Assembly (NCBI GenBank): GCA_963575745.1
Contig: CAUYUJ010000092.1
Location: 248,001 to 312,000, forward strand
Reading direction: 5' to 3'
DNA length: 64,000 bases
Source of the DNA: Prorocentrum cordatum
Lineage: Eukaryota
The translations under genes and the position numbers were made by a program. Positions 6,126-63,087 of the stretch are shown piece after piece (positions within the stretch are counted from its first letter, which is position 1; every line of letters begins with the position of its first letter). The notes under the pieces were generated by a model. The model worked only from the letters and a program-made list of their open reading frames with translations, did no database searches and was not told the origin of the DNA.

Positions 6126-7446
6126 ATGTCTTTCTCTCGTGAGGAAATCCAGGCTGATCTCGACGGAATGCCGGGGAGTGCTTTCAACAGCACTTCGGCA
6201 GAGCAACGCGAGACATGGGTTCAATTCGTGCTCAGCTTGGAGGCAGAGCCCAAGGCCAGACACGATCTGCGCTGGTATACGGCAGTGGCCCGCATGATGA
6301 GCGAAGCCGTGAGCAGCGTCCACCCCGGTGACTTCGCGGATGAAGTCATCCGTGATCTGCTGAAATCGAGCATCAAGGTACATGATACGCCCTTCACTGG
6401 AGAGGGTAATCATTCGAGCTGGCAGGCCGTGAAAGCAACGCCGGCGATGCTCGTGCACGCTCTCCGCGCCCACGACAAGTGCTGCAAGGAGACCAAATCT
6501 TCCCAGGAGGCTACGGGCAGCACTGCCTCGAGCGCGGCCGAGGGCCTCACCAAGGCTATGAACGAGTTCGTGAAAGAGCCAGGGCGAGGCGAAAACGCCT
6601 GGCAAGAAGAGTCTCTCCTACGATCGCGCCACGCGCCCTCAGGAGATCGGCCTCGCGTTCTTTCCCAAGGGCGCCCTTCCCAATGAAGATCTGTTGATCA
6701 AATGGGAAGCTGCCAGCAGGGTGGCTGCCGAGAACGGGCGCCCCTTCGTGGGAAGCACGGATGGAGATGATCTCCAGCTCCTCCACCGGCCCGCCTGGCC
6801 CCGGAGCCCTGTCATCGACGATGCCCACCGAGGGCTCTTGGGAGGACCGCTTCAAGGCGAGCTTCGAGGTCCGCAAGGCCAGGGCGGCAGAGGAGAAGAC
6901 AACGCACGTTCCACGGATTTGCGGCCTTCATTGGTCATCTTTATTCGTGGGGCATGAAGCTGTGCTTCACCGAGGTCTGCGCGCCCACTGAGCTGCTGGC
7001 GTACATCTTCGTCACCAAGGTGGCCGAGGAATCCGGCGGCGTCAACACCGCATATCAATATGATCTGCTGGTGCGGAAGGAGATGGCTCGTGCATTTCAC
7101 AGCCAAGTGGTATTTCACGAACTTGGACCGGGACATGGTCCGCGAGGCCAGGGACAAGGCCGGCGATGCCCTCGCCCGCGCCAGCAAGAAAGGAAGTGGC
7201 CGCGGCGCCGGCTTTGCTGCGTCCGCGCCCGTAGCCGCCGGACCGCAGAGTCGGAGCGGCAAAGCGTGGCCGAAGGGTGCTGCTGCGGACAAGCGCCCGG
7301 TCAGGTCCCCCAGCCGCCAGCGCTCCAGAACCCCAGCTGCTGCCGGCAAGGGCGGCGGCAAGGGCAAGGGCGGCAAGGGCGATCACCGCTCCAGCACCTG
7401 GGCCGGCAAGAGCTCCGACTGGGGTGGCTGGAAGGATCGCCGCTGA
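6126..7446 (+). pseudogene. gag-like ORF1 of the YR retrotransposon, multiply frameshifted
   Basis: Lies directly upstream of RT. Coding-like pieces in ORFs 6126..6686, 6694..6991, 6954..7100 (AYQYDLLVRKEMARAF) and 7060..7446 (basic, Gly/Lys-rich tail). Confidence 0.6.
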
Positions 7447-13435: not shown

Positions 13436-16400
13436 AAAAGGACGAGAGCAGGAGGAAAGGGACCAGAGTTACCCAAGCATGCATCAACGATGCTGCAATA
13501 CACCCTCCCTTCCCCGACTACCCAACGACTCTTCTCTCGCGGACAAGAGCAAGCCAGTGCGATTCTGTACCTCCATTCGGTTCCATCGTCATCGGGCAGG
13601 TTGGTCTGGGACGATGTGGCCAATCATTACACCGCACGGGCCCTTTGCCATTATGGCTCAAGCGGCGTGTTGCGGTGGCCTGCCTAGGAAATCGGCTGGC
13701 GCTGCTGGTCTGCTTCGACACGGGCTCCCCAGAGGTCGCCGCTCCGGCCGTGAGTTTGCTTGCCGAGCTCACCGCCTGGCATGCTGGGCGGTGCCGCCCT
13801 GCTGCGACGAGGGCGGCCCAGAAGGCCACGAAGCTGCCGGCCGAGCTCGCCGGGCAGCGTCGTGAGCGCCGCCGGCCTGCTGCGACAAAGGCAGGCCGCG
13901 AGACGGCTGGCGATTTGGGCGCGGCAACCTTGCTGCGACGAGGGTGGGCTGGAGGTTGCCGCGCGGGCCGCGGACCTGCTGGGTGGGCTTGCCAGCCTGC
14001 TGCGGCACGGGCGGCCTGGAGATCGCCGCTCGGGCCGTGGGGTTGCTGCCCGAGCCCGCGGGGGCCGCTTGCGAGCTGGGCGCGCCCAGCCTGTGTTACC
14101 TGCGACGGGGGTGGCCCGGAGCTCGCCACGCAGGCCGTGAAGCTGCTGGCCGTCCTGGCCGAGGCAGCGAACGCTTTGGTCATCGTTTTCGTATTCCTTG
14201 TTTTGCCGATCGGCGCGGGCCCTCGCACCCCCCCCCCTCCCCCCCCAATGGAGTAGATCTTGGCTGTTTTCGGCGCATGTTCCCAGCAGGTGGAGGCCCT
14301 CCCCATAGGAGGACGCACTGTCTCAAACAGTCCTGCCAGGCAGAGGTCTGGAGCCAGACCTCCCCCCCCTCCCCCCATTCCGCCCAATGTCGACACGCCG
14401 AAGAAGAAAACGCTCGCCCTGCCAGCCCGCCAGGAGGAGGCCGCCGCGCGGGACGCGAAGTTGCTGGCCGAGCTGGCCGACGGTCTCACCGCTCGGGCTG
14501 CGCAGCTGCCGGCCGAGTGCGCCGAGGCACGGTGCTGGGCGCCGCAGCCCTGCTGCCTGCCACGGGGGCGGCCCAGCGCTCACCGCGCAGGCTGCGAAGC
14601 TGCTGGCCGGCCTGGCGAGCTGTCCCACGCCGTGCGGCTGGCGTTGCGGCCTGAAGCGACGAGGGCCTTCCCAGAGGTCGCCACAGCGGCCGCGAGGCCG
14701 CTGGCCGAGGCAGCGTTCGGGGCGCCGCCAGCCTGCCGCGACGAGGGCGGCCCAGTGCTCGCCGCGTGGGCCGTGTAGCTGACGGCCGATCTCGCCAGGC
14801 TTTCCTCGGAAACTGGAACATATGCATTACCAGTGGCGGGCGGTTTCTCAATCCCAGGACTTCTTGAGGGCCGAGGACGACGCTGGGGTGGGGTGGTGTA
14901 TAGGTTGTTCCCCGATGTCCTGGGGAAACAACGAAAAAATGTATACACCAGGGTCCCGTATACACCAGGATCCGCTCTCCAGTGCAAATTCCAATGCAGG
15001 GCCGGAAGAAGCGTCGGTGTATAGAGTTCGGTTCCCTATTTCCCCGAGTCAAGAGGGTGTTCGCCAAGCGCGGCACAAAGACCCGACGTCGGAAGTGCTC
15101 ACGGCAACAGTCCTGCGGTCGGGAGTTGTTGGATGGCGTGTCGCTCCGCCGGTTGGCCCACCACGCGTCGGCGCGACACGCTATCCACGTCCCTGTCCCC
15201 GAGCGTCAATGTTCCGAGGCTTTCCGAGCCTCCCGCCCCGCGAGGCGGAGCGACGTGCTGTCCACTCGTAAAGCAGCACAGCGTGCCGCCGGGGCCGCCG
15301 GGGTGACACGCGAAGCAGAAGTCCCCGACCGTACAGATTTCTCGACGTATCTTCGGGGGTGGACACCCCCGCCCTGACACGTCGATTAGTGAATTATCCG
15401 TTTTCGGTTCTCGAGAGGGCGCCGTGGCCCTCATGTTCCAGGCTTGCGCCCGCCCGATTTGGGCTCGAGGTTGTTTTCCCTAAACCACGTTCTGCTAAAG
15501 GGGGTTCTGTCCATCCCCGGTTCCTGGAGCTGCGAGACAGCCTCCCGCTGGCGCGCTGCCAGTCGTTGCGGCTGCTGGGTGGCCAGGGCGCGGCCTGCTT
15601 GGCGATTGCTGTGCGAACGCTGCGCCGCCGCGCGGCCAGCTCCGCCGTCCTCGAGCGCCTCTGAGGCGAGGCCGCTCCTCAGCGACCCCATGGCGGGCTG
15701 CGTCCCGGGGCGGCCCCCTCACCAGAGCTGCTCCCGGACGGCCCCGGGTGCACTGTCGACGAGGGTGCTGCGCGGTTCGCGCCGGAGTGCGACGGCCTCG
15801 CGAGCGGCCCCCCAGGGCTGGGTGCCGTCCCGGGCGGTGCGCGCCGACATGCGGCGTCCTGGTGGATGGCCCCATGACGGGGGCTGGCCCCGTGACGGGG
15901 CGCATTGGCGGGGGTGAATGCGGGGCGGCTCGCACCAGAGCGCGACGTCATGGCGAGCGGCCCCATGACGGGAGATGCTTCCGCATTGCCCAATGCTGGG
16001 GGGCAGTGTCAGGCGTGAATGTTGGGCGGCACGCGCCGGAGTGCGGCGTCTGGCGGGGCGGCCCCATGGTGGGACTGCGCCCTCAAGGATGAGTGCGAGC
16101 AAGGGCGACAGCGCATCTCCATTCATGAGGTGGATACACAGCTTTGGCGAGAGGCAGAACTGCACAGCAGCCGTGAAGGCCAACAACGCCGCCTTCTCCA
16201 GGTAGAGGCCGGCTTTGAGAAGGCCCTTTCCCCAGGCATCACGCGCGCGAATCTGGTATTTCCTCTCGGAGTGCAAACTTTTCTTGAAAAGCCGACGTGT
16301 CCCGTCCTCGGAATAGCCAGACTTTGTTCAAGGCGGGCATGCGCGTCGTTTCGGCCGAGGCCAGAGTTTGAAAACGAACTACCATTCATCCGAACAGTTG

Positions 16401-35239: not shown

Positions 35240-35307
35240 TCGGTTCCTGTGCCCACGGGAGCTGAGCTCGCTCGCCGCGCCCAGACCTCCTGCCCGTGCT
35301 GGCGGAG

Positions 35308-38300
35308 ATGGCGGCGATCGATGTCGTCGACGTTCGGACCGACATGAGGCTTCAGAGGTTCGATGGTACGGACGAGAGATGGGCAGACTGGAGCCTCAGG
35401 TTCGAGGCCTACACCGCGCTGCTTGGCATGGAGGACCTCATGACGGAGGCGGCCAACAGGCGCGACCCACTGGCAACGGACCAGCTGGGGGACCAGGCGA
35501 GAGCGGTCAGCCAGAGGCTCTGGCATCTGCTGATCACGTGGTGCGACGGCAAGTCGCTGGGTGTGGTCAAGCTCTCGAGGAAGAATGGCCTGGAGGCGTG
35601 GCGGCAGCTCAAGATCGAGTATGAGAGCAAGTCGGGCAACAGGTGGACGGCCATGCTGCGCTTCATCCTGAACCCTCAGGACAAGTGGGCGAAGGATCGG
35701 GAGTCGGGCATCGACTTCTTTCAGTCTCTCACGGCGTGGGAGGCCATCGTCGCAGAGTACGTGGACCAGAGCGGCGAGGCGGTCTCGGACAACGTTCGAG
35801 TCAGTGTGCTGCTAGAGCACGCGCCAGAGCCGTACCGTGAGGTCCTTCGGCAGGCGCCTGAGGAGGTGAAGCTCACGTTCGCAGCGGCTCGGAGTCACAT
35901 CAGGGGCTACTACAATCAAGGGCGGACGTTCACCCACGTCCCAGACACTGGCGGGGTCGTGCCGATGCAGGTGGATGCAGTTCGAGTTGGACTGCATGGC
36001 GGCAAGTCGCACGGGAAGTCGGGCAAGACAGGCAAGATGGACAAGTCAGGGAAGTCTGGCAAGAATGTGAAGGGCTGCAAGGACTCGAAGACGAAGTCCA
36101 AGAACCGCGACGGCAAGCAGGGCCATGGCAAGGGCCAGTCCGACTACTTCGACGGCGAGTGTGGCTACTGCGGCAAGTGGGGCCACAAGCGGGCCGACTG
36201 CAGGAAGAAGAAGGCAGATGAGGCCAAGAAGGAGACTGGCAACACTCGCGCGGTTCAGGGAGATGGATCGGCCTCGAGCTCGGGACAGCAGCAGTCCGAG
36301 GGCGGGGTCCGCGCCGCGTCGGGCTACTACGACGGCGTTCCCGACGGCTGGGTGTTTGCGGTCTCAGCGGCGACGAGCGGCCAGGTGGCGAAGGTTGGAG
36401 GCTCCATCCTGATCGACAGCGGCAGCGACGACCACCTGTGCAGGCACAAGTTCGTCCCAGAGGCCCCAGTCAACAGTGCGACGGATGCCCCCAGGCTTTT
36501 CGACGTGCAGCAGCGACCGCTGCCCACAGCGGGCCTACGGGGTGTTGAGATGACGATGCAGGAGGGCATCAAGGCGACGGCAGACTTCCTCGTTGCCGAT
36601 GTGAATGACGACCTGCTGAGCATGGGCAAGCTGCTCAGGCAGGGTTTCAGGTTCAACCTCAGCATGGAGGACGGGCTCTACATGACGAAGGGCCACCGCA
36701 GCGTGCAGCTTGAGTTGGAGCGGAACAGCCTTAGGCTCCCGATCGTGTCCGCGAGCCTTGCGCCAGCGGCCCACCACTGCTGCGGCGCGGCAGGCCAGCA
36801 GCAGGCAGCGACGGCACCAGTGCTCACGGCGGAGAGCTCGGTCGGCGCGATGAGGACCAGGCTGAGGGAGCTGTTCATGCCGATCTACGGCACGAAGTTG
36901 GAGCTGTGGGAGCGGCTCATTGTGGCAGAGGCGGCTGCCAGGCGCTCGGAGGCGGAGAGGCTGCACAAGCTGGCGGTGAAGGAGCAGCTCGGGATTCAGC
37001 ACGATCCAGTCGAGCCGAAGCAGCTTCCAGTTCCGAAGGCCCCGAGCGCGGAGGAGGAGAGACAGCATCGCCTCACGCATCTCCCTGCTGCTCCGTGGTG
37101 CGAGGAGTGTGTCAGGGCCAAAGCTCCTGATGCACCTCACTCGCTGGTCAGGCTCGAGGACTCAGAGCAGAAGCACCCACTCATCAGCTACGACTTCGGC
37201 TTCTGCAAGACAGCCGACGAGGAAGGGGACCTGACCAAGGTAGAGGACACCTACGCGACGATGCTGGTGGCGTTCAGCTCTGACACTGGAGTGGTGAAGG
37301 TTATTCCGTGTGCGTCAAAGGCAGCTTCACCATACGCCATTGCAGGCATCAAGTCCTTCGTGCAGAGGCTCGAGACGGGCAAGTGCAGGCTCAGGACGGA
37401 CACGGAGCAGGCGACGAAGGCCATCATGGACGGCGTGGTCAGCGAGCTCGCGGGCAAGGTCACGGCAGAGCTGACCCCCAAGCACAGCAGCCAGTCGAAC
37501 CCAGCGGAGGCAGCGGTGAAGATAGTCGAGGGCCAGACGAGGGTTCTTAGGCTGGACCTCGAGAAGCGCTACGACACGAAGGTGACGGCGGCCATGCCAA
37601 TCTGGGCGTGGATGATGCGTCACGCTGGGTGGCTTCACGAGAGGTTCTCGAGGCGAGCTGGAGGTCAGAGCCCGCACGAGATCGCGACAGGCACGCCGTA
37701 CAAGGGCGACATCTGCAACTTCGGCGAGACGGTGCTGCATCGGGTTGCGCGTCCTGCGCATCGAGGTCTCACTGGAGGTCGGCGTCTGCATCGAGGCGAG
37801 GCTCAGTGGGGCAAAGGGATCTGGGTCGGCAGGTCGGACGAGTCGCAGGAGCACCTGGTGATGACGCCTCGGGGGCTTGACCGCGCACGGACGGTGCGAC
37901 GGCTCCCTGAGGGAAGGCAGGCTGACAAGGAGCTCCTCATGACGGTGACGGGGCTGCCTTGGGCTGCGAGGACGGCCCCCGAGAGGTCGAAACGCAGGCG
38001 GGCGCCTCAGCAGATCGCGACGGAGCTACCGAGGGCAGAAGGACCTCTTCAGCCTGACGCTCCCCAGCCGCAGCAGGCAGGACAGCCAGAGGGCGGAGCA
38101 GCGCCTGCTCAGCCTCAGGCACCGCAGCAACCACCTCCGCCGGCAGCGGCAGCGGCTCAGCAGCCGCAGCCCCCAGCACCAGAGCCGCCGGCGCCCAGGG
38201 ATGTGGCGATGGGGGCGGCGCCCTCGCAGGCAGCGAGACGTGGGGTCTCGCCAGCAGCAGAGGTCTCCGAAGGCAAGCGAGCACGAGTTGCAGCGGTTCA

Positions 38301-40536
38301 CGCGCTGGAGGTTGGCAACGTGGATGACTCGCCTGACGCGTTCTGGGAGGAGGTCTCGGATGAGGTGGAGGACCCGACGGATGGCATGTTTGACGTGGAC
38401 ATGCAGGATGAGCTGGACAAGAAGCTCACCATGGAGCACCTGCAGAGCCTCCTGGACCATGGAGTCGGCGAGGACATCGCCAAGTCGGAGGCGAATGGGA
38501 TGAAGCACATCACCACGCGCTGGGAGAAGCAATGGAGATGAAAGCCAGCGTTGCAGGAGTGGCAGCGCAAGGTGCGGTTCGTCTGCCGCGAGTTCCGCTG
38601 GCAGGAATGGCGTGACGACCTGTTCACACCTGGATCGGCTCCGATCTCCAACAGGTTGGTCGACTTTGTGGCTCTCAAGCGCGGGTTCGAGGTGATGACG
38701 CTCGACGCGACGGATGCCTTCTACCAGGCCCCAGAGTACGAGGACGTGGTGGTTGACCCCCCGCAGGAGTACTTGGACATGCTCAGGGCGGAAGGCAAGG
38801 ACACGGAGATCTATTGGAAGTTGAAGAAGCAACTACCTGGGAGACGGACGGCAGCGCCAGGCTGGGTGGAGCACATGGCGGGCATCCTCACAGACGAGAT
38901 GCAGATGACCAGATGCGAGGTGGCGCCGCAGTTCTTCTACAACCCTGAGACGGAGGTGGTGGTTGAGCTGCACATGGACGACTTGCACATGGCTGGATCC
39001 AAGGAGGCGCTGGAGGGCTTCCGCGATGAGCTGAAGCAGCATGTGACCTTCAGCGGCGGGGAAATCCACGAGTACGGCACCACCTACGAGCACCTGAAGA
39101 GGCTGAGGACGAGGTACGAGCACGGCACAGAGCTGCAGGCCAACCCGAAGTACCTCGATTACGTGGTGGAGACCCTCAACCTCGGCGGCCCCAACACGGC
39201 TCCCACTCCTGGAGTGCCAGCACACAAGGCGCTCATGGGGAGCACTCCTACTCTCTCTCAGCAGCAGGCTGGCGTCTACCGCTCATGCGTGGGGGCGCTG
39301 ATGTACTACGTCCAGGACAGGGCGGACTGCCAGTACGAGGTCAGCTTGCTGGGCAGGATGCTATCAGGCCCCACCGTCGGCGCCTTCACTGCGCTCAAGA
39401 GGCTCGTGAGATACCTGCTTGGGACGAGGAACGCGGTGAACTGGCTACCGAGACCGACGGAGGGCACGAACGTGGAGCTAGTGGGCTTTGGTGACAGCGA
39501 CTGGGCAGGCGACTTGCAGACGAGGAGGTCCCAGTCGAGCGGCAAGATCGAGATCGATGGTGTTCCCATGCACTCGTTCAGCAGGCGCCAGAGCATCGTG
39601 GCCACTAGCTCAGGAGTTGCTGAGTACTATGCGGCGACGGCGGTCGCCGAGGATTTGCTCTACTTCAAGTCACTTCTTGAGTTCATGGGCTTCACGGTGG
39701 CAGCCACCCTGCTGACGGATTCGTCAGCTGCGCGAGGCATTGCCCGACGTGAAGGAGTTGGTAAGGTGCGGAGTCTTGAGGCTCGAGTTCTTTGGCTTCA
39801 GCAGGCGATCAAGAGGAAGCTGATGGACCTCGGGACTGTCGGCACCGACGACAACAAAGCGGACCTGGGCACGAAGATCCTTGGACACGATCGCTTCGTC
39901 AAGCTCAGGACGCTCAACGGCATCTACACGGACATGGGCCAGGTCGCGGAGAGTAACCATCAGTCGGAGGAGGTGGACTTCGACGTGGGGGCGGCAGCAC
40001 GGGTCAGGAGCTCGAGAACTTCTACGAGCTCACTCGGTGCTAGTCGCTCGGCGGCCCTGGCTATGATCACAGCGGCGGCGACGCTCCTGCAGGGCTGCGA
40101 GGGCCAGGTCGCCGACCAGAGCAACTACTACTACGACACGGAGGTCTGCTCCAGGGATGGCATGGCCACGAGCGACTGGACAGGTTTCCTGATGATGGTG
40201 GCTGTCTGGACACTGATCGTGGCGGCCATCAGCGGCTACGCGGGGTTCCGCTACGCCAGCATGCGGGACTCGGACTGGGTCCTGGTCTCGCCCGAGCCCA
40301 ATGAGATGACAGAGGAGACCACCCACACAGACAAGATGGAGGATCCGCTTCCAGGCGTGCCAGCCTCACTGGTTATGATGCGACCGAGTCAGCCTACCAG
40401 GAACGTGAGCACGCAGTCCCAGATGACCTACAAGTGGAAGTGGGCGGTCCCTCGATTCCAACCAGTCCAGGACCACGCGCACGGTGCCTTCCTTGAAGTG
40501 CGTGTGGACAAGGCCAAGGGACTTCTTTTGAACTGA
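35308..40536 (+). CDS. copia Gag-Pol polyprotein with a single in-frame TGA at 38539-38541
   Basis: CCHC knuckle CGYCGKWGHKRADC, protease LIDSGS, integrase HLPAAPWCEEC / YDF / RTD / E, RT LDATDAFYQ and LHMDD, RNase H GDSDWAG / AEYYA / TDS / NKADLGTK. ORFs 35296..38541 and 38551..40536 are in the same frame. Confidence 0.93.
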
Positions 40537-45585: not shown

Positions 45586-47079
45586 ACTCACCCAGACGGC
45601 GCAACTGGGGGAACCGCGGAGCGGGAACTGGGGGAACCGCCCGGAGCGGATCCCACTGCCCGGCCCCTTTAAGCAAATAGACCAAGCCTCAAGAAAGCAT
45701 TGAAACCAGTATCTAATTGCCGAATTTTCCATCGTCCAATGAAACCACGGGCGCGATACTTCTTGATCACGACGCCGAACACGTCGTCGCTCTCCAATTG
45801 AAGATGCCAGTCTGGCCGAACGAATTCCCACCACGAGTCTACATCTGAAGCAGCGTGTCCTCTTGAATGCCGAATACTAACGCCCCCCCATGTCCTCGTC
45901 CTCATAACCCTCAATATGTTCCCTCTCCTTCCCCTGCCGTCCCCCATTTTGACAATTTTCCTCCATCTGCCCATTCCCTTCTAATCGCAATCAGCAGCTA
46001 AACAACCTACTTATGATGAGCAACTCTCACCCATCCGCTCGACGTCCCCTGAGGTAACGCTCAGCGCGCAACCTGGCACAATAATCACACCGAAATTCGT
46101 GACATTTTCGTTGCGTCTTGAACTATGGTGCACGTGATTTTCTCCGACCTGTGCTCGAGAACTTGCTCGCGCCCCCGTGCCCCCCCCTTGCCCTACAATC
46201 TGAAGAACCAAGATGACCCGTCCACACGAGGTTGTCTGAACTGATTTGGAGAAAGCGCTTTGACAACATCATGGCGCCGAAATTCGTGACATTACCCTTG
46301 CGTCTTGAACTGTTTGAATTTCGTAGTATCCGTGGCGCGGTCCGAGACACTTTCGCACGGCGGGGCAATTATTCCGATCCATCGCCGCCCAAAATATTCG
46401 ACGCCGAACGCTGGTGAATTACATTGATATCGCCCTCCCCCTTATTCTTCCCATAATATCCTCCTCCTCCTCCTCCGCATCTTCCCCTCCTCTAATCGCG
46501 TTCGGCAACTCAAGAATATCTACGAGATGGGGCTGAGAACTCTCGCGCGCGCCTGGGCTTGTTCCGATCCATCGCCGCCCGCAACATTCTGCGCTGAAAT
46601 ATTCAACGACTAAAGCAGGTGAATTACATCATTACTCGCCCCCCCCCCTTATCTTCCTCATAATCCTCCTCCTCCTCCTCCTCCTCATCCTCCTCCTCCT
46701 CCTCCCCCTCTTCCCTTCCCTACCCTAAATATAAGCAAATAACGAGCAGCGCACGAACCTGCAGTCCCACATGCCAACCAAATGTCAAGAACAAAACAAA
46801 CTGGCCTTCAATACCTGCGCCTTCAGCAGATGAACAATCCCCAAACGCAGTGAACAAGATATTCCGGATATTCTCCAATATATCCGGGGTAGCGCCAGTC
46901 GTGATCCGTTTGGAGAAGCCAAACGCTGCATTAGATGGCCGAGCTTATGCCGCTCCACAGTGCTCCAACACAGCCTCATCTCTCTTGCGGCTGCGCTTCG
47001 GCACAGCCAGTTCTGCCCGGAAGCGGAACCTGGGCATTCTTGCTATCACGCGTGCGCATACAAATTACTCCTCCACCTA

Positions 47080-47868
<789 letters not shown>

Positions 47869-50800
47869 CGTCTTGGATTTGCTTTCTCGCCACATCCTGA
47901 ACCCCCAGTGCCGAAAAGCTAAAGATTAACGCGCCGCTGCCAAGGAGCAATGTCACAAAGCACTAACGAATACAATTCCAGACGCTGTCATTGCAAGAAT
48001 TCCCAGAGAACCCAGACCGCCGCTTTCCCTTCGCAATGGCTCGACGCACACCTGTCGAGCTCGCCAAAGGTGACCGCTGCGACACTCTCTTCCGGACTGT
48101 CCCCTTCCACCTGCGATTGACGCGGACCCTCCCCTCTGGAATCGCAACTGAACCAGAGGATGCCTGCCCGATAACACGCCGACCACGTGGAAGCGGCCAC
48201 CAAAGTGTAAGACGCTGAACACCAGCCACACAAGCAAATTGTAACGCCCCCCCCCAAAGGAAACCATTCTCTTCCAAAGGTTTTTTGATCGGCATCCACC
48301 CCAACCCGGAAAAAGCGGCGGCGGTAAATCTCCAGCTGACTCGGACCTCAGAAACTAGCAATGCTGGTTGAGAGCTCGCTGGTCCAGAGAAAGGTCCCAC
48401 TCCTACCCGCCGGCCCCTGCAAAGCGACCACCCGGATTGTACAGCCTAGTTCCCCGCAACACAATTCTATGACATGCGATCCAACAGAAAATGTGTTGCA
48501 ATGCCAGTGCGATGCTAAGCCTCAATAGTGTACTGCGTTTTGCTATGATCGGCCCTCGGCCGATTCTCTCGACGAGCCCGACGAACTCATATACAGCATC
48601 TACGCGACCAAAAAATTCTCTTACTACATACTTGAAACCAATCTCCCTTTCATGAGTCACGGCGGATAAGCGCCAAGCGTTTGCAGGGGAGGAGCAGACA
48701 CAGCGGGCTCTTCGGTCACAGCCTCGACACCGCTGTCGCTGTCGCTGTAAAGGATTCCTCCGCGGCCTCCTCCTCTCGACAGCGCCAGAACTACTGAGCT
48801 CCCCCGACCGCGAGCCCTTCCTGTCGCAGGCGCTCGGGCACCTGCCCTAGCCCGGCCCCTGCCGCGACCTCGCCCTGCGGCTTGCGACGAGGCGGCTACA
48901 TCGCCCTGGCCGCAAGAAGTCCTCTTTTGGCCCCCCTCCATGCTCGAGCAACGAGTGTCCGACGAGAAACATTGCGTACAAACGCACAACCAACAGGAAC
49001 ATGCGAAGAATGCAATTGGCGATCACACGCAGTTCAATAATGATGCGAGGTCATAGGATATCTAACAATAATAACGTATACACGAATCCCACCAGCTCTC
49101 TAGGCATGGGTGATCTGATGAACTCTTGTAATCTCTCTTCCAAAGCTCCTCAGCCCCCTACTCGAGAGAAAGGTTTACCCTCTCCCACTACCCCCTCCCC
49201 TGAACCTGCAAGCGGAGAACGCCTGAGACGCTAGAGCACGCAAGATGGTCCAAGATGGCTCCAAGAGCACCCCAGAGAGCCCAATATAACCTCCAATACT
49301 GCCCAAGATACCTGGACATGGCTCAAGATACCCTCCGACATAACTGCAAGAACCTTCAAAACATATCCAAGACACTCCTTGATCAAGACGACTCGCCGGG
49401 CGAATCTGTTTCTGGATGAGCTGGTGTGGAGACGCGGAGCGTCCAGAATTCACTCTTGCCTGTTATCAACGAAACCGCGAGCAGACAACAACGAGTGCCA
49501 ACGCTCGTCGAGAAAGCATATTCACAGCACGGGACGCACACCCATGCCGATCTTGCAATTTGCATTGCCCTCAAAGAACTCCACACACTACAGACATGCC
49601 AAAACATACTACTCCCGCAACGTCGCTTAGCAACATTGCAATTGTTTCTGATGCGGTACGCATGGACGCCACACCAGTAAAGAATCAAATGCCCCTACAG
49701 AGCGACCGAACAATAACATCCACAAGCGGCAACGCGGCAACGAAAATGTCACGAATTTCGGCCCTCTAAAAAATGAAGAACATCAACGCGTTCGACACGC
49801 AATCATCACATGGCCCCGACAACGCAAGGATGGAGCAGCACGCAGTTTCCAGAACAAGTTAGAGGATCTACCACAGCGGCAACACGCAACAAGCATGTCA
49901 CAAGTCACGCCTCTCCAAACTCGCAACGAACATGCCACAAGTCACGGCTCTCCAAACTCTGAGCGGCAACGCGCTAGCGAGCAGCGATGGAAGCAAGAAG
50001 CAGCCATGATTCGCGACCCCAGACGTCCAATAAGTTAAATTGCTTCCACGAAGCAGGATGCGCAATCATCATCGCACTAAGAATCACTACCATGTACTTA
50101 TGCATAGAGCACAGCCTGCCGACAACCGAAGAACCATAACGAGGATGTCCTATCCTCTTCCTCCTCCTCCTCCTCCTCCTCCGCCTCTTCCCCCAACCCC
50201 CGCATCCCGCACGCGGCACGCGCGGGGCACGGGTGGAGGCACGAGCGGATCCGACATCTAAAACTACGCCTTGTGAAAGACGAGCCCGCCCCACAGGAAG
50301 AGGAATTCCACATCAGCAGGAGAAGCAGGACGCAGACGATAAGAAAACGGCCCCGGGATCCGACGGACGCCAGAAAGCCCACCCGCAGAGCGTACCCTTA
50401 GACTTCGGATCCGCTGGATAGCATTGCTCCTCCGCGTCCTCCCTCTAGCTTTTCCCTTCTTACTTTCATACTATGTACCTGCAGTCACGCCCCCTGCAGA
50501 GCGTACAAAATAACGCATACTGAAAACCACGCGCTCTTCCAGCATTCCCCCTCAAGGAGCTGGAAAGGTTGTAACAGCCGGTTCGGAAAGTGCTGGAGCC
50601 GTTTGGGAAGTCCTGAGCCGGGGAGCATTGCCCCACCAATCTGGATGAAACCATGTGGTTGCGTCGAGGCCCCCGGCATAAGAAGCTATAGCGCAGGTGG
50701 ACAGAGCACGCAGGAGGAGGGATGAGGATAAAGAAACGGAGGAGGGAGGAGAAAGGAAGGAGGCAGCAGGAAGGGAAGGAGGACCAGTGATTTGTTGACA

Positions 50801-52082
50801 ATGAAAACCCTTCTGATACTATTCAGCTGAGGCCTCCCGAGCCTCCTCAGGTCCCCAAGCAGCCTCAGAGAGCCCAAACGGAGCGTCACGACAACCCAAG
50901 AGATCGTCGAAACGGCCCATGGTACCCCCGAGCTAGCCGGCGAGATCCCCAAAACCCTGAGACCCTAAGGCCTGAAGAAAAGTAGACCATAAAACCTAAA
51001 ACTTTCGAGTCCACGCACCTCATGCAATTTGACACCGGTGCACTAAAACCTTAAGTCCCTGACACCCTTATCCCCCACCATGCCCCCTGGCACGTAGAAG
51101 CGTGCTAGAATGCCAAATGCTGCCTGGCGAGCTATCAGTAATCTTGCAAGAGACCCCCCCTCTACTCACACCTGCTCCCATGCATCGCGCCCCTCTTCCC
51201 GAGACTTTGTCCGCGCTCAGATATGTCGCTGGCGCTCTCTAAGGCATGCAAGGTGCCCAAGATGCTCTCCAAAACGAAATTGGAGACCATCGAAATCATC
51301 AGGATAGCCAAAGATATTTCCAAGACGGCCCAAGAGACACAAATGCAACACCAATCGCTCTCCAAGAGGACCCCAAAGAGAGCCAAAAGAGACAACAATC
51401 TTTGATTATTGTACGACTTTCTTTTCAAATGGTTCGGTTATTATTGCCTTTTCGATCTTCCAACGCTCAAATACGGCACCGATTGCTCCCAAAACCGCCC
51501 CAAGAGAATCCCAAAACAATCAAAAAGGCGCCCACACAGACCAAAGCAGCTCCAAATCGGCCCCAACAGAACCCCAGGAGGAAAAAACACCAATCGATAA
51601 TTGAAGCCTTCCTTCCGCCCGAAGAGCCCCCAAGACGCCCCAATATGCTTCGAAAAATATGCACCCGAAGTGCCCCAATGATGCCCCCGGACGACCCCAA
51701 ATAGGCCTCATAACCCCTTCGAACACACCCGAAAACTTCCAACGATATCCAAACGACCACCAACATCATCATCACCATCATCATTATCTTCATCCGCATC
51801 ATCATCACCATCATCTTTAGCAGCATCCGCATCATCACCATCATCACCATCAGCATTATCACCATCATCACCATCATCATTATCATTATCATCATTATCA
51901 TCATTACTATCATCACCATGGGTCTTGTGCGGGTGAGAAGGTCAAACGCTGCTCTTGGGAGCAGGAGATTGAAGCCAACGCAGCGATTATGATTGGATTC
52001 CTGATGTTTTCAGTGCCAGTGCCAGGCCCCAAGTAAGTGTCAGGGCAAGGAAGCAAGTAGGCGCAAACGACGCCAAGCAAGC

Positions 52083-52620
52083 TCACGAAGATGACGCCCG
52101 GGACCGTTTGCTGCGCTCTGCTCCCGTGGACGCCCTCGTCGCGAAGTGCGACCTTGGCCGCCCTTTGCCCCCAGCTCGGCTCACCGAGCCGGTCCGGTGA
52201 AGGCGCTGCCGCTCAGCAGCCGTCATGGCTCTTGTCTTGAATTGCGTCCTTTTGCGACGCGGAAGTGGGCGGCCAAACTCTGCTGCATCCTCTGCCCAAA
52301 TTAGCCCGGTGTCGCTGGGAACATATTCACTTTTTTGGGGCCACCGCACCCACCTGGGGAAGTTCTCGCAGCAGAACGCTTTGCCCGCCTTCTTGGCAAT
52401 TGCGTGCGTTTCCGCGGTGTAGTGGCAGCAGATACCTTTATGGTTCTTCCTGGATTTGGCGCCCCGGTATCCCTTATCTGCCGTAAAAAATGTCAACCGC
52501 TCAATGCTGCCATCTGCCTCGAGCGCCCTGCAAGTGCGCTCGATGTCATCTGTGATCTGATGCCGCGAAAAACGCGCCAAATCGTGCGTCGCGAAAGCAC
52601 CAATCCGCCACCGCGCCACT
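52083..52620 (-). CDS. C-terminal exon/fragment of a TET-associated glycosyltransferase-like protein
   Basis: TDDIERTCRALEADGSIERL...GICC...ENFPRWV resembles the EDxERS...DGxVxR...GG...FP pattern of TAGT/GREB1-like GT-A enzymes. Confidence 0.5.
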
Positions 52621-52627
52621 TGGCCGG

Positions 52628-52642
52628 CATCATCATCGTCAG

Positions 52643-52728
<86 letters not shown>

Positions 52729-52730
52729 GT

Positions 52731-52775
<45 letters not shown>

Positions 52776-52953
52776 GTAGTCGCCATCGTCATCATGGTCA
52801 TCATCAGCATCGTCATCATCGTCGTACCCGTCATTATAACCATCGTCAGCAGCAGCACCAGCAGCAGCGCCATAATCAGTATAATCACCTCCTCCTCCTC
52901 CTCCTCCTCTGCCTCCTCCTCATCATCATCCTCGTCGTCCTCCCGCTCAGCAC

Positions 52954-52991
<38 letters not shown>

Positions 52992-53920
52992 GTATCATCA
53001 TCATCATCTTCATCATCATCATCATCACCATCATCATCATCAGTATCATCATCATCATCTTCATCTTCATCTTCATCATCGTCATCATCATCGTAGTCGC
53101 CATCGTCATCATGGTCATCATCAGCATCGTCATCATCGTCGTACCCGTCATCATGGCCATCGTCAGCAGCAGCACCAGCAGCAGCGTCATAATCAGTATA
53201 ATCACCTCCTCCTCCTCCTCCTCCTCATCCTCCTCCTCCTCCTCCTCCTCTGCCTCCTCCTCATCATCATCCTCGTCGTCCTCCCGCTCAGCACCATCAC
53301 CCTCTTAATCCTCCTCATCATCGTCATCCTCATCCGCCTCCGCATCATCCCCCTCGTCCTTCTCCTCCCCCTCCTTTTCCACCCCCTCCTCATCCTCCTT
53401 ATCATCATCATCATCAGCATCATCATCATCACCAGCATCAGCATCAGCATCAATAACACCAGCATGAGCATCATCATCATCATCATCCTCGCTCCTCCTC
53501 GCCAGTCCTCGCTCCTCCTCGCGCCTACTCGCTGCTCTCTCATCCTCGCTCCTCCTCCCTTATCCTGCTTCCTCCTCCCTCCTCCCTCCTCCTCCTCCTC
53601 CTCATCATCCTCCCCCTCCTCCTCAACATTATCCTCCTCGTCGTCAACCTCCTCATCATCACCTCCTCCTCCTTCTCCGCCGCGTCCTCCCCCATCGGTG
53701 TCATCATTCGTCTTCGTCTTCGTCGTCGTCGTCGTCGTCGTCGTGGTCGCCATCATCATCATCACCATCACCATCGGCATCATCGGCTTCATCGTCGTCG
53801 TGGACGTCGTCGCCACCATCACCGTCATCCTCATCATCATCTTCATCATCATCATCATCATCATCAGCATCATCATCATCATAATCAGCATCATAATCAT
53901 CATCGTCATTATCATCATCG
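52628..53920. repeat. compound (CAT)n/(CCT)n/(CGT)n low-complexity tract with an internal duplication
   Basis: About 52770-52955 is repeated at about 53088-53298. Confidence 0.92.
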
Positions 53921-54259
53921 TCCAAGGCCCTAAGGCACCCACTCTCCGAACCCACAATCCCAGAGACCCGAGAACAACGAGAAAAAACAATCCTTAAACT
54001 AATATTAATGATAATATTGAACAAATACGTACCCTAGTGCTCTGGGGCCGCAATACTCCAAGACAATAGTGCAATAAACCGTATACAATAAAACTCCAAG
54101 GGGCCTGCACATTGAAAGCCAAGCTTCAAAAGCCCGAAAGCTTAACACACCCAAACACCCAACACTTTGAACGCTACAGCCCCCATGCGTGTGACAAGCC
54201 CTATACCCGAGAACCATAGAACATACACGCACCCAACCCGATCACATAAAACCGCCCAC

Positions 54260-55080
54260 AGAGACGTCGAAATTCGTAACATTTTTGTTGCGTGTTGACC
54301 TTTTGTGCAATTTGTACTCTCCAAGGTGAGCTCGGAAAGCCTTGCGCGTGCTCGATCATTTTCCCAATTCAAGGATCGCCCAGAAGGTACAGCGTTCACC
54401 GATGGTAAAAATATCTTCCCTCCCCCTCTCCTCCTCCCCCGCCTCCTCCTCCTCCTCCTCGTCCTCCTCCTTTTCCTCCTATTCACCCTGTTCCTGTTCC
54501 TCCCCACCCACAGCCGGCAGAAAAAATAGAGAGCGCCACCCGCAGAGACATAATCTGAATTAGTTTCGGCGAGCATTTTGACAACATCGTAACACCGAAA
54601 TTCGTGACATTTTCGTTGCGTGTTGACCTGTTGTGCAATTTATACTCTCCAATCTGGGCTCGGGCACCCTTGCGCGTGCCCAGACATTTTTTTCCAACAC
54701 AGGATCGCCCACAAGGTACGGCAGTCAACGATGGTAAAAATATTTCCCCTGCTCTCAACTTTGTCCTCCTTATTGTCCTTCTCATAATCATCCTCGTTAC
54801 CCTCCTCCGCCTCCCCCTCCTCCTCCTCCTCCTCCTCCTCCTCCTCCTCCTCCTCTCCTCCTCCGCCTCCTCCTCCTATTCACCCTTTTCCTGTTCCTCC
54901 CCGCCCACAGCCGGCAGAAAAATTGCGGAGCGCCGCCCACAGAGACATGATCTGAATTAGTTGCGACGAGCATTTTGACAACATCGTAACACCGAAATGC
55001 ATGACATTTTCGTTGCGTGTTGACCTGTTGTGCAATTTGTACTCTCCAAACTAAGCTCGGAAACCCTTGCGCGTGCCCAG
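54260..55080. repeat. tandemly repeated dispersed-repeat unit (320-420 bp), with related copies at 46080-46330
   Basis: Recurring ccgaaattcgtgacattttcgttgcgtgttgacc and cacagccggcagaaaa...atctgaattag. Confidence 0.8.
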
Positions 55081-55315
55081 TGCGAACCCGCAGTCCCGCA
55101 TTACAGCCCAGAGGGTGAGAACACACAACGCAACTTTTCAAAGAAAAGCCACAATACATGATGCCTACTACCGAAGCACTTAAAACCGATTCGTCCTCCC
55201 CATCTCCTGGTTATAATAATTATCCTTACGTCTCTCCTCCTCCTTCTATTCCCCTCCTTTTCCTGATTGCCTTCCTCCTTCGCCCCTTTCCAATCGCGAT
55301 GAACCATTACAGAAC

Positions 55316-55665
55316 CTACCCATGATCAAATGAAGTCTCCGCCAGTCCACGTAGAACTGTGACGCGGTTTATTTTCTCCCAATTGAGAGCGAGACTCTTC
55401 TGCGGCCTGTTGGCCCCGAGACGATATTGTTGCAAGATCCTAAGATGCCAGGTGCCACGGATTCCCACAGCGGAGATGGCCGCAGGCCATATGATAAAAG
55501 AGCCACAAACGAGACCGACACATGAACGAGTCTCGCACTGGTCTGTGGATTTCTCAGCCGCTGTCCGAAACTGCACTGGTAGATGCCGATTCCCGAACCC
55601 ATACAGATTAGTATTTGGAGCAACTAGAGCCGAACGAAATCCGCCAACGCATGTGTAGCACAAAG
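55316..55665 (-). CDS. middle exon/fragment of a TET-associated glycosyltransferase-like protein
   Basis: ALVAPNTNLYGF...VGLVCGSF resembles the PxxNxF...LxxxxGxF segment. Exon borders are not resolved. Confidence 0.4.
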
Positions 55666-55679
55666 CGGCTGTGAGCACA

Positions 55680-55801
55680 CGACCGACGACCCACGACCAA
55701 CGACCGACGACCGACGACGACGACGACGACGACGACGACGGACGACGACGACGACGACGATCGAGAACGACCCACCACGACCGACGACGACCGATGACGA
55801 C

Positions 55802-55840
<39 letters not shown>

Positions 55841-55875
55841 ACGACGACGACAGCGACGACGACGACGACGATGAC
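55680..55875. repeat. (GAC)n microsatellite
   Basis: Direct observation. Confidence 0.95.
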
Positions 55876-55929
55876 GAGGAAAGCGAGGGACTGCAGCTCC
55901 CTGCTCCGACCGAGAAGCCCCGTTTCCCC

Positions 55930-56361
55930 TCTCCGACCTCCGGAACGCCAAAGGCTACTGAATATTGCCGCATTGTCAATAACATTGCGGAGCTCTTTGG
56001 TGGACAAATCGTAAAACCGAATGTTTTTGATATTATCATCAAACCTCACATACCTTGCCCCCTTGGGGCAGACGAAATCTATAAAGCAATCGACGTTGTT
56101 AGCACCAGATGGTCCCCTCAGAATCTTGGACGCCCAAACGGTGCCCGCGAGCTCGGATCTATATTTCCCCTCTGCGAAGTCTGTGTCATCGTCAGTGCAA
56201 ACAATAAATGCTTTTGAAATCCAAGCAGCAGTATACACGGATTCCAAGATCAATAACGTCTTCGTGAAGATTTCAGCCGCACGCCCGAAAGTGCGAACAA
56301 AAGTGAATGGAGCCGAGCCGCCACTCTGCTGCCGCACGCGGCGGCGAGCAGCCGCTACCAT
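55930..56361 (-). CDS. N-terminal exon/fragment of a TET-associated glycosyltransferase-like protein (GT-A fold)
   Basis: FVRTFGRAAEIFTKTL...GANNVDCFIDFVCPKGARYVRFDDNI resembles the SYxR...KTL...RNFI...PxG...DDDI pattern, including the DxD-like motif. Confidence 0.55.
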
Positions 56362-56894
56362 GTTTTTTTCTCAGCCGTATTCGGTCCAGCCTCTGCCCAG
56401 GGCATCTGCCTGCGAGCAGGCATAGCTCCCTACAAGTATACCTTGACGAAGTTTCAATTCAACGTGAAACCTCGAGCCAAAACTAAGACAGTACGAGAAG
56501 CCTCCGGAAAAGACAACACAGAAACAATTAAAAGGCTCCGCTCCACCCACAAGATATCCCTAAGAGAAACCCACAGGACTCCAAATACTGCCTCCTGAAA
56601 GTGGCACTGCTGATTCCGCGACGCGCATGCTTTGTATTCGTCACTATCGTGGTGCACTCCCTGAGGCACCGTGCCAAAATTTTTTGGAAAGTCCTCTTCC
56701 GACTGTGCGCGGCCTCTTTGTGTTCCCCGCGCTAAGCCGTTAGAAGCAGGACCGCGCGCGAGCGCCTTCCATTCGCTAGATGGCGGCTCGCCAGTCCGAA
56801 TATATTGCGCCAGCATTGGTTCCTACATTATGGGAGGCATGATGGGAGTGGGCGAGGCCCGCTGACTCGGTCGACCTGGCAAACTCGATCCTCC

Positions 56895-57612
56895 CTCATC
56901 ATGACAATCATCACCCTCATCATCATCATCAGCATCATCAGCATCGTCAGCATCAGCATCATCATCATCAGCCGCATCATCATCAGCATCATCAACATCA
57001 TCATCATCATCAGCATCATCATCATCAGCAGCAGCATCAGCAGCATCAGCATCCTCATCATCACCATCATCAGTAGTAGCATCATGATCACCACCACCTC
57101 AATCATCAGCATCATCAGGATCATCATCATCGTTTCTATCAGCAGAATCATCATCAGTATCATCATCATCAGCATCACCACCACCATCATCAGCATGTTC
57201 ACCATCATCACAGGCAGCAACAACAACAATAGCATCATCAGCAGCATCAGCATCAGCATCTGCGTTAGCATCACAATCATCAGTATCGGAATCGTCAGCA
57301 TCAAAAAGATCACAATAGTTATACATAATGTTCACCGCAATCAAAATATTAATCAGCATCATCCGTATGTTCATCCTCATCCGTATCATCACCATCATGG
57401 CATCGCCACCAGCATCGCCATCATTATCGCCCCCAGCATCATCAGCATCATCAGTATCATCATCAGCATGATCAACAGCATCCTCATCCTCACCATCGCC
57501 AATGTCATCGTCACCGTTATCAGCATCAGCATCAGCATCACCATCATCATCAGCATCATCGGCACATTGATCATCATCATCATTGTCACCACCACCACCA
57601 CCATTTTCATCG

Positions 57613-57652
<40 letters not shown>

Positions 57653-58020
57653 TATCAACATCATCATCATCATCAGCATCATCATCATCATCAGCATCAT
57701 CATCATCGTCACCATCAGCATCAGCTTCATCATCCTCGTCATCGTCATCAGCATCAGCATCAGCATCAGCATCCGCATCAGCATCCGCATCAACATCAGC
57801 ATCATCATCATCAGCAGCAGTATCATCATCATCAGCATCATCATCATCATCACCATCATCATCATCATCCTTATCCGCGCCATCGTCATCATCATCATCA
57901 GCATCATCCCCACCACCATCAGCATGATCATCAGCATCATCATCATCAGCAGCATCACCATCACCATGATCATCATCATCATCAGCAGCAGCAGCAGCAG
58001 CATCAGCATCAGCATCATCG
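56895..58020. repeat. (CAT/CAG)n degenerate microsatellite
   Basis: Direct observation. Confidence 0.95.
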
Positions 58021-59599
58021 TCACCCCCCCCCTGCGCCCACCACGCACGTGAGATGAGAAGGCAGAGGAGGAGGAGGAGGAGGAGGAGGAGGAGGAGGAA
58101 GAAGGGGGTTGAGGCGAGGTGGGAGAAGCAGGAGGAGGAGATAGAGGATGGGGAGTAGCTGGAGGCTGGCGCACGTTTGAAGAACGTTGACGTTGATGTT
58201 CGGCGGACCTCACGGGCAAAGAACCATCCTAACAGTTGCATGCCAGGACCCAGCGCGAGAGCCAGGTCCACATCACGTTGCCCAGCGGACCCTCGGAGAC
58301 AAGGAAAGACCACAAGCCATTGGAGACCTGCAAGTTGGCACCACCACCAAGATTTCGGTGGTGATGTTAATCTCTCGGCCACCTAAGAGGCCCGAATACG
58401 ACAAATCATCACCGAGATGAAGATCATCTCTCCTCGGTGGAGGCGTGCGCGCCCCGGGGGTGGCGCCCAGACCCCGGGGCCCTGTCCCCCCTGTTTTCTC
58501 GGCCTGCGGGCCACGGGGCTCTCGACGCGGCGCAGCCGAGGGAGAGCAACCGGGGCCCCCGAGGAGGAAAGCATCTGAGACCGCCAACACGACGTCCAGA
58601 CCTAACCGCAGCCATCGCCATCGTCGCCGCCGCCGTCGTCGCGAGCGTCGCCGCCGGCGTCGGCAGCCACCGTGATCGTCGTCGTCACCATCGGTGTCAG
58701 CATCGGTGTCGGCACCGCCACGCCCACCCTCTCACGGCCGATTGGCACCCCCCCTTCTCACACACAACATGATCGTCGATGTGATCAAGGTTTTTTGCCT
58801 TTTGTTCCTCAGGCTGCGCTCGGCCTCCTGGCATCGCTGCCGCTGGGCTGGTCTGCCTGCGTGTGGCTGTGTAACGTGGGGGGTCCAGATATCCCAGAAA
58901 CCGAACCAAAGGGGACGAGGAGATCCAATGTGTGATCACAACATGCGACGGAAGACACTAACCCTGCGGAAAGTCCGCGCGAGCCCTGCACAATCCTCGG
59001 ACTGCCTCTATTGCACAGCATGCGCAAACAGTTTCCCACGAGAGAACAGATGCGTCGATGTTCCTGGAGAGGGCAACCCACAACAAATCTGCGCATGCCC
59101 TGCAAGTCATCTGTTGGTTCGGACAAGTGTTCCGTGCTCCTGATGGTGTTCCTACGCGCCGACGGCTGCGCCACTGGTTGCGGCTTTGCACTGGAGACGG
59201 TACCACGCACAACTATCGGGACAAGCCCTCTACGAAGCACCCCGAGAGCACCGACAAGCGATGCAGGGGCTAGACCAACAACAATAAGCGCAACCATCCC
59301 GATCATACTCCTCGTGTGTGTGTGTGCTGGCTTTCCTTCTCGACCCCCCACTCCTCATGTATCTGTCCAATCGCATCCCAAAATCTACTCATTACATTTG
59401 GTCCTTATCATCACATCAACATACTCAGGCAGCGAAACATGCACGCCGAATGAATTACGCAGAGCACGTCATTAAATTATTAAAGTCGCTCTTAGAGAAA
59501 ACCTGTTGAGTATTGGGTGCCCTTGAACACGCCCTGCCACCCCGACACCCTTACACCCCAACACACCAACACACTAACACCCTAACACATTAACACCCG

Positions 59600-62312: not shown

Positions 62313-63087
62313 CCCCCCCCCTCTCTCTCCACTTTCTCTCTCTCTCTCTCTCTCCTCTCTCTCCCTCTTCTNNNNNNNNNNNNNNNNNNNNNNNNNNNNN
62401 NNNNNNNNNNNNNNNNNNNNNNNNNNNNNNNNNNNNNNNNNNNNNNNNNNNNNNNNNNNNNNNNNNNNNNNCCCCCCCCCTTTGCCGCCCCCGAGTTCTG
62501 GCGTGCGAGAAACCGATGTACCCAACTGCTATGTGCGAGAGATCTCTCCTCCACGGGATCTCCAGGGAGCGGGGCCCAGCTCCAAAAACATGGTATACGT
62601 CAACGCAGCTGTCCTTTCGCTGCGCGAGATGGGATAAAAGTTTAACGCGCAACGGGAAATTCAACTACCAGCCTCGAACTTATTTTTACCCCTAAGATTG
62701 ACACGCCAGAAGGCGATGACAATCTTAGGGATGCGCCCTCAAAAATTATTCACTGCGTGGGGATCCCCATATGTGCATCTCCTTGCTGGCGCTCCCTTGG
62801 TGGTGGGACTCGGTGAGGACGAATCTGGATTTAAGTGTGGACTGCAGCAGGCCTCTACTCTCTGCTAACTCAGTCTGCTCTCAATCTGTCTCTCCTCTCC
62901 TCTCTCCTTCCAAGTGCCCTCTCGAGCGAGGCTCCTGCATCTCGTTCCTGACTCTCTTTCTCCTCGGGACTCTGAGCTCTCTCTCTGCCACGAGTCTCTT
63001 CTCTGTCGTCTCTCGTCTCTCACTCATTTCTGGCTCTCTCTTATCTGTGCCTCACTCTTCTTTTTCTCTGCCTACTACACTCGAGGC

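Follow-up and report, generated by a model that had tools for sequence, protein, structure and literature searches.

The TET-associated glycosyltransferases (TAGTs; Pfam family PF20691) of phages, e.g., those of Ralstonia phage phiRSL1, Synechococcus phage S-CBWM1, and Arthrobacter phage Altadena (gp63), are the closest described relatives of a split gene that we analyzed on the minus strand of a 64,000-nucleotide stretch of the dinoflagellate Prorocentrum cordatum (GenBank assembly GCA_963575745.1, contig CAUYUJ010000092.1; this whole stretch is referred to as the window, and the gene occupies positions 52083 to 56361 of it). Phage TAGTs have the GT-A fold; in GT-A enzymes, a DxD-type motif holds the metal and the nucleotide-sugar. 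The gene order in Altadena is a ParB-like protein, a "Tet-like J-binding protein," the glycosyltransferase, and a deacetylase, and the TAGT genes of PhiJL001 and LuckyBarnes lie beside or near hydroxymethylase-type thymidylate synthases. Two eukaryotic systems are likened to the gene by description only. The first is kinetoplastid JGT, a member of the same superfamily that glucosylates 5-hydroxymethyluracil (5hmU) in nuclear DNA; in kinetoplastids, 5hmU is only the precursor of the glucosylated base J. The second is animal GREB1, a multidomain protein of very large size that is reported to act on a protein. The available text of PMC4111573 describes the role of TAGTs and places GREB1 in the same TAGT-type glycosyltransferase group. 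A TET/JBP enzyme makes the 5hmU of dinoflagellates (Li et al. 2024; PMC11572971, available text), and according to the same text, 5hmU is made by TET/JBP enzymes in kinetoplastids as well. Base J is not reported in dinoflagellates, unlike in the kinetoplastids with JGT. The gene in the window belongs to a little-known, dinoflagellate-specific family, a divergent offshoot of the TAGT superfamily below the reach of Pfam's model.

A divergent TAGT branch in dinoflagellates

A reading made from the letters and their open reading frames (ORFs) without database searches (the sequence-only reading) had pointed to three minus-strand fragments carrying, in the correct order, motifs of TAGT-type GT-A enzymes. 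All of the motifs that it quoted are present, from N to C terminus, in three open frames: RTFGR..KTL and FI..PKG..RFDDNI in the frame at 55903 to 56370, PNTN..GSF in that at 55319 to 55678 (only the first ~58 residues of which belong to the gene), and DDIERT..DGSIER..FP together with KGRPR in that at 52086 to 52625. The gene that they compose begins with an ATG at 56361 and ends with a stop codon at 52083 to 52085, exactly the ends of the interval singled out earlier. Coding part 1 (55938 to 56361; its 3' end is approximate, with possible donors at 55905 to 55989) encodes the N-terminal half of the GT-A domain; part 2 (55496 to 55668) encodes the middle of the domain, with GLVCGSF at its end; and part 3 (52086 to 52604) encodes the C-terminal half and a basic tail. 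They are separated by interruption 1 (55669 to 55937; 269 bases under the working model), across which the frame changes, and by interruption 2 (52605 to 55495), which consists of 2,891 bases of repeats.

Joined in order, the three parts give 372 codons (1,116 bases) without a stop or frameshift. Against a profile of the family built without the window sequences, the joined reading scores 273.5 bits, parts 1 and 3 score 150.2 and 99.5 bits alone, and the reading without part 2 scores 243.1 bits. Part 2 by itself is not significant (BLASTP E = 0.23; 4.6 bits against the family profile); within the joined reading it contributes 30 bits, and none of 20 shuffles of part 2 reached the real score (best, 257.1). 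In an alignment of 11 family members, the window copy keeps all 11 invariant columns and 11 of the 13 near-invariant ones (22 of 24 in total), the two losses being W152 to L and F188 to I.

Searches with part 1 (P0001) against 1.84 billion representative proteins recovered 32 matches at E ≤ 1e-3, of which 7 had E ≤ 1e-10. The top match, P0004, was dropped as an artifact, since a weak 27-bit match had been summed over ~24 identical Ig-like repeats; hence, 31 relatives are counted in what follows. The best of these, P0005 (356 amino acids [aa]), spans all three parts, and part 3 matches it with E = 2e-34 and 43% identity across 164 residues, basic tail included. A scan of metagenome contigs added 17 further family loci. 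Word-indexed protein searches (with part 3 against longer proteins, with P0005, and with alignment A1) recovered no further relatives, and a sequence search of the Protein Data Bank (PDB) gave one chance match for part 1 (E = 0.63) and none for part 3.

The cluster members with names come from the genome of Effrenium voratum (Symbiodiniaceae) and the transcriptome of Polykrikos kofoidii. Metagenome locus L010 opens, on the gene strand, with CTCAAG and then 15 bases that match, with one mismatch, the dinoflagellate spliced leader (sequence as given in the available text of PMC12584245). The genomic locus L017 differs from the 99%-identical, transcript-like L018 by 195 bases, interpretable as a GC-AG intron with a G after it. 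Because of the named members, the spliced-leader relic, and this intron, we conclude that the family is a nuclear, multicopy dinoflagellate family with transcript evidence. The L017 intron (6209 to 6403 of that contig) has a 4-base CAGG repeat at both ends and falls in a stretch that is uninterrupted in the window copy; thus, intron positions vary among the paralogs. A quick tree groups the window protein with P0005, P0009, P0007, and P0031 (Shimodaira-Hasegawa-like approximate likelihood ratio test [SH-aLRT] values of 88 and 94) and leaves the deep order unsettled, including whether virus-like sequences fall inside or outside the dinoflagellate set. On the long metagenome contig L020 (3168 to 6567), frames with FHA and protein kinase domains lie directly upstream of a fragment of the C-terminal half of the family, an arrangement that may be a fusion, a neighbor, or a gene fragment.

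The predicted proteins of the family are mostly ~360 to 370 aa long, though longer forms exist, and they share an FVRxxGR strand, a DDN motif, and a DD(I/V)ER motif. In the window copy, these correspond to FVRTFGR (56281 to 56301), which would form the first strand and loop of the domain; DDNI (56029 to 56040), the predicted DxD-type metal and nucleotide-sugar motif, whose D111 and N113 are invariant; and DDIER (52536 to 52550), a second acidic motif; here the family has D206, D207, and R213 without exception.

An AlphaFold2 model of P0005, built from a 24-row alignment, has a mean predicted local distance difference test (pLDDT) score of 80.4 and a predicted template modeling (pTM) score of 0.76; the structure comparisons that follow rest on this model of a relative and not on the window protein. 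Foldseek searches with it against PDB recovered 82 matches at E ≤ 1e-3; the 50 listed are nearly all nucleotide-sugar enzymes of the GT-A type, with a best E value of 3.6e-6 and query template modeling (TM) scores of ≤0.43 among the matches listed. Against BFVD, a database of predicted viral structures, the best matches are phage TAGTs, with E values of 2.3e-15 to 1e-10 and TM scores of 0.6 to 0.75 (e.g., the glycosyltransferase of Synechococcus phage S-CBWM1, E = 2.3e-15 and target TM = 0.70; the TAGT protein of phiRSL1, E = 2.1e-12). Nine of the 50 BFVD matches listed bear the TAGT name, 8 of them among the best 22, and a T-even-type beta-glucosyl-HMC-alpha-glucosyltransferase also appears among those listed. 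Language model features from the Atlas resource agree, placing the nearest clusters in the PF20691 set for 28 of 30 clusters with P0005 and for 30 of 30 with part 1 of the window protein. Thus, neither outcome that the sequence-only reading named as refuting its proposal was seen: GT-A matches were found and ordinary glycan transferases were not the best of them. Generic glycan enzymes of the GT-A type (GpgS, PcManGT, and the GalNAc-Ts) share the Rossmann-like GT-A core and the DxD logic but are far weaker matches (E ≥ 3.6e-6 and TM ~0.4, versus 2e-15 and 0.7 for the TAGTs), and none of the 31 relatives has a Pfam match to their families.

In Pfam searches, TAGT is recovered at E ≤ 1 in 14 of the 31 relatives, while other families appear once each and none of these is a glycosyltransferase. 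Profile-profile alignment with hhalign of 11 dinoflagellate sequences with 6 phage TAGTs gave one collinear alignment of 220 columns (E and P both 0.001). It pairs, dinoflagellate first, FVRxxGR with IPTxGR, DDNI with DDDL, DDVER with ED.D, and KGGIS with GGCS; the third residue of DDNI is N and not D as in the phage DDDL. Several results weigh against membership in TAGT as Pfam defines it. None of the 31 relatives reaches the Pfam TAGT cutoff of 27.5 bits, the best attaining 25.3; the window fragments have no Pfam TAGT match even at E ≤ 10; hhalign assigns the dinoflagellate-phage alignment a probability of 21%; and the dinoflagellate profile misses the TAGTs of phiRSL1, PhiJL001, and LuckyBarnes, scoring ≤7.4 bits (≤3.2 for the phiRSL1 loci). 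Likewise, a tblastn search with P0031 against phages gave no match. As no fragment or relative attains the Pfam cutoff, we conclude that the fragments and their relatives form a divergent homologous branch and not a Pfam-defined member.

The homology is carried by sequences that connect the two sides. On the metagenome loci L021 and L022 are three ORFs that clear the Pfam TAGT cutoff, at 42.8, 50.0, and 34.0 bits; against the dinoflagellate profile built without the window sequences, they reach 118, 89, and 60 bits, respectively. Because they do both, the dinoflagellate family is placed as a branch of the TAGT superfamily. In tblastn searches against phages, the same ORFs matched S-CBWM1 (1e-18) and Arthrobacter phage Altadena (9e-16). 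Their predicted products are virus-like relatives that bridge the phage TAGTs and the dinoflagellate family. L021 (1728 to 4912) carries two head-to-head genes passing Pfam TAGT, one of them encoding 757 aa with a long N-terminal extension. On L022 (2 to 2018), a contig whose G+C content is 24%, the TAGT gene directly follows a gene for the small chain of ribonucleotide reductase.

The proposal that this gene is of the TAGT-type GT-A family is thus supported by the fold, the BFVD neighbors, the language model features, the subthreshold Pfam matches, and the bridging ORFs. Phage TAGTs are the best structural neighbors of the dinoflagellate family, with L021 and L022 as the link in sequence, and both groups have the GT-A fold with a collinear series of an (I/F)xxxGR strand, DD(D/N), an acidic (E/D)Dx(D/E) helix, and GG...R/T. 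Unlike phage TAGTs, the dinoflagellate proteins score below the Pfam cutoff, have DDN in place of DDD, and carry basic AT-hook-like or long extra regions; their genes are nuclear, intron bearing, and multicopy, and in the window no adjacent dioxygenase or hydroxymethylase was recovered by the scan described below.

Interruptions and the state of the window copy

The two interruptions differ in how readily they can be removed. The available text of PMC12584245 gives GT, GC, or GA as the donors of dinoflagellate introns and AG as almost always the acceptor. Interruption 1, in which 199 of ~269 bases are an (ACG)n microsatellite, can be removed as a GY-AG intron (where Y is T or C) in nine in-frame ways, with the acceptor AG before 55668 in all of them and donors at 55905 to 55989. 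The family profile cannot pick the donor: the GT after 55938 of the working model ranks 835th of 3,160 junctions. This interruption may thus be spliced as a normal intron.

Interruption 2 contains a tandem unit of ~397 bases (54268 to 55080; copies 84 to 90% alike) and, beyond it, (CAT)n, (CCT)n, and (TCA)n repeats totaling ~1.4 kb. The unit recurs in partial copies outside the gene (46087 to 46325 and 49721 to 49761) and is therefore a dispersed repeat. At the junction defined by homology, the interruption has no AG acceptor and no GT, GC, or GA donor; its ends are AT..GG, with a 2-base microhomology. Of the GY-AG alternatives that keep the frame and contain no stop (46 in all), the highest scoring pairs the GC after 55504 with the AG before 52618 and attains 257.7 versus 273.5 bits; it lengthens the protein by two residues and replaces a conserved G..FG stretch and the invariant G185.

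We compared contigs of four public runs with the window over 51950 to 52660; these are 90 to 97% identical to it and of unspecified library type, and none derives from this exact locus. Two of them cease to match the window at exactly 52604. Beyond that point, the 466-base contig of run X2 agrees with the end of part 2 in 28 of 30 letters, passing from part 2 straight into part 3 and giving GSF|IGAF as in all relatives; hence, the relatives are uninterrupted at this place. The run X1 contig continues instead into sequence like that of part 1, skipping part 2 out of frame, and also has a +1 insertion; that of run X4 has a +2 insertion. Across part 3, the contigs differ from the window at 23 distinct sites, of which 15 are nonsynonymous and 8 are synonymous, a pattern close to neutral. 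The contigs show that uninterrupted and decayed paralogs exist, and not how the window copy is processed.

Interruption 2 would accordingly be a 2.9-kb repeat insertion at a point where the relatives are uninterrupted, with no usable splice sites there. Because it lacks GY-AG ends at that junction, the balance tilts, if only slightly, toward reading the window copy as a paralog that was recently disabled or is poorly expressed, and not as a working gene. The earlier suggestion of a decayed copy in a transposon-rich region also fits, given the nonspliceable repeat insertion, the frameshifted paralogs, and a copia-type element nearby. Weighing against loss of function are the 1,116 open bases with 22 of the 24 conserved residues kept, the availability of a frame-keeping GC-AG splice for interruption 2, and the limits on the contigs' identity, library type, and origin given above.

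The same points favor a less probable alternative, to which we give perhaps one chance in a few, namely, an intact three-exon gene whose interruption 2 is spliced either at an unconventional junction or through the GC-AG alternative that adds two residues. A working gene would account for the 372 open codons and for the retention of all invariant and 11 of the 13 near-invariant residues; interruption 1 has its nine in-frame solutions, the GC donor after 55504 and AG before 52618 would preserve the frame, introns do occur in family members, and the contig that joins parts 2 and 3 as homology predicts could be spliced RNA. This alternative has to contend with a homology junction devoid of AG and of GT, GC, or GA, and with the loss of 16 bits and replacement of G185 in the GC-AG version; furthermore, next to the junction, 2 of 30 letters of the joining contig depart from the window, and this contig, which comes from a run of unspecified type, may represent an uninterrupted paralog.

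Upstream of the ATG by ~110 bases, a 13-mer on the minus strand (56471 to 56483) weakly resembles the spliced leader. The resemblance is not significant (4 matches versus 1.36 expected; 13 of 373 background windows score equally), so retroposition of the window copy is not supported. With the locus probably a broken copy, its value lies in pointing to the family, which merits attention more than the copy itself.

Predicted activity and acceptor

The sequence-only reading had also described a basic, DNA-binding-like end. The window protein indeed has a 76-residue C-terminal tail with 19 lysines or arginines versus 6 aspartates or glutamates, in which two T.AER motifs stand on either side of KGRPR (52152 to 52166); the assignment to DNA binding is suggested by motif. 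P0005 carries KRGRP at the position aligned with KGRPR. Searches with the Pfam AT_hook model gave no match in the window fragments and E = 0.48 in P0026. By motif only, the window tail looks like an AT-hook, and in the subfamily of the window copy, the C-terminal tail is predicted to be basic, with an AT-hook-like GRP core.

By analogy with phage TAGTs and JGT, the sugar donor and DNA acceptor of the family are most likely those of these enzymes. The DDN motif would hold the metal and a uridine diphosphate (UDP)-sugar, the DD(I/V)ER helix would help on the side of the acceptor, and the basic tail would hold the enzyme on DNA. A hexose would then be transferred from the UDP-sugar to the hydroxymethyl group of 5hmU, or of 5-hydroxymethylcytosine (5hmC), already present in DNA. 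We tentatively suggest, at well below even chances, that this expressed, nuclear, multicopy TAGT/JGT-like family with DNA-hooking tails glycosylates some of the 5hmU (or 5hmC) of dinoflagellates to a base-J-like base.

If this were true, sugar-bearing DNA would be present in a second eukaryotic lineage, independent of the first, and the current statement that dinoflagellates never evolved this step would be contradicted. A TAGT-type family with transcript evidence offers a concrete candidate enzyme for the old question of the purpose of their huge 5hmU load.

Several observations weigh against a DNA role and speak for an enzyme that is TAGT-like by descent but acts on a protein or small molecule, its tail being a nuclear or nucleolar targeting signal. 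GREB1 acts on protein, being reported to glycosylate one. The GRP core is found in the C-terminal tail of just 3 of 34 sequences (the window copy, P0005, and P0026). Further, no TET/JBP or hydroxymethylase domain was found among the window ORFs (Pfam E ≤ 1e-3; 88 ORFs of ≥130 aa window-wide and 73 ORFs of 70 to 129 aa in 40.5 to 64 kb), the only domain recovered being RVT_2, although this is a weak test in that partner genes may lie apart in eukaryotes and short exons escape it. Dinoflagellates are said not to have evolved the step to base J (PMC11071213, available text), and no glycosylated base is reported for them in the texts recovered by our literature search. The terms glycosyltransferase and JGT are absent from the available text of PMC11572971, and our search found no paper tying dinoflagellates to a TAGT or JGT enzyme, the TAGT-defining paper, which may list other eukaryotes, lying outside this check. 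What argues in turn for DNA as the acceptor is that the characterized relatives nearest in structure and sequence come from phages, where their genes adjoin those for dUMP/dCMP-hydroxymethylase-type thymidylate synthases or TET/JBP dioxygenases, and that the acceptor is abundant, with 12 to 68% of thymine replaced by 5hmU in dinoflagellates (PMC11572971, available text). A non-DNA substrate is a serious but doubtful alternative.

We consider it quite improbable that the gene belongs to viral DNA inserted in the genome, from a giant virus or a phage-like element, and not to a host family. Such an origin could explain why the closest nondinoflagellate sequences lie on virus-like contigs, such as the 24% G+C contig with the ribonucleotide reductase small chain, and why the top Atlas cluster is labeled Nucleocytoviricota. 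It is countered by two scans of a viral contig collection (with P0005 and with alignment A4), which recovered no relative, by the spliceosomal introns and spliced-leader relic in family members, by window ORFs among which no viral hallmark domain was found, and by a tree in which the deep order is unsettled. Chance open frames, or an ordinary glycan glycosyltransferase of the GT-A type, could be entertained because the fragments lack a Pfam match of their own and the region is rich in repeats that hold frames open, but both are refuted by the homology of parts 1 and 3 to real proteins (E values of 1.8e-19 to 2e-34), by BFVD matches to phage TAGTs nine orders of magnitude better than those to glycan transferases, and by the bridging sequences.

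Genomic surroundings

Just upstream of the gene lies a 1.1-kb (TCA)n microsatellite (56896 to 58023), and further on, 100 N (62372 to 62471) mark an assembly gap. On the plus strand, ~12 kb from the gene, two long open frames of 1,091 and 664 aa (35266 to 40533) form a retroelement; the second (38542 to 40533) contains a copia-type reverse transcriptase domain (RVT_2, E = 5.4e-9). Farther away on the same strand, 21 bases (13642 to 13662) match the dinoflagellate spliced leader except at 3 positions (none of 100 shuffles match) and look like the relic of a retroposed mRNA. Within part 3 of the gene, the 32-base stretch at 52517 to 52548 is the only one common to the gene and a set of long, high-depth contigs, which occur in all four runs with the same flanks (e.g., 2,162 bases at a depth of 195 and 2,489 bases at a depth of 46). 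This short segment is thus also carried by abundant unrelated sequence.

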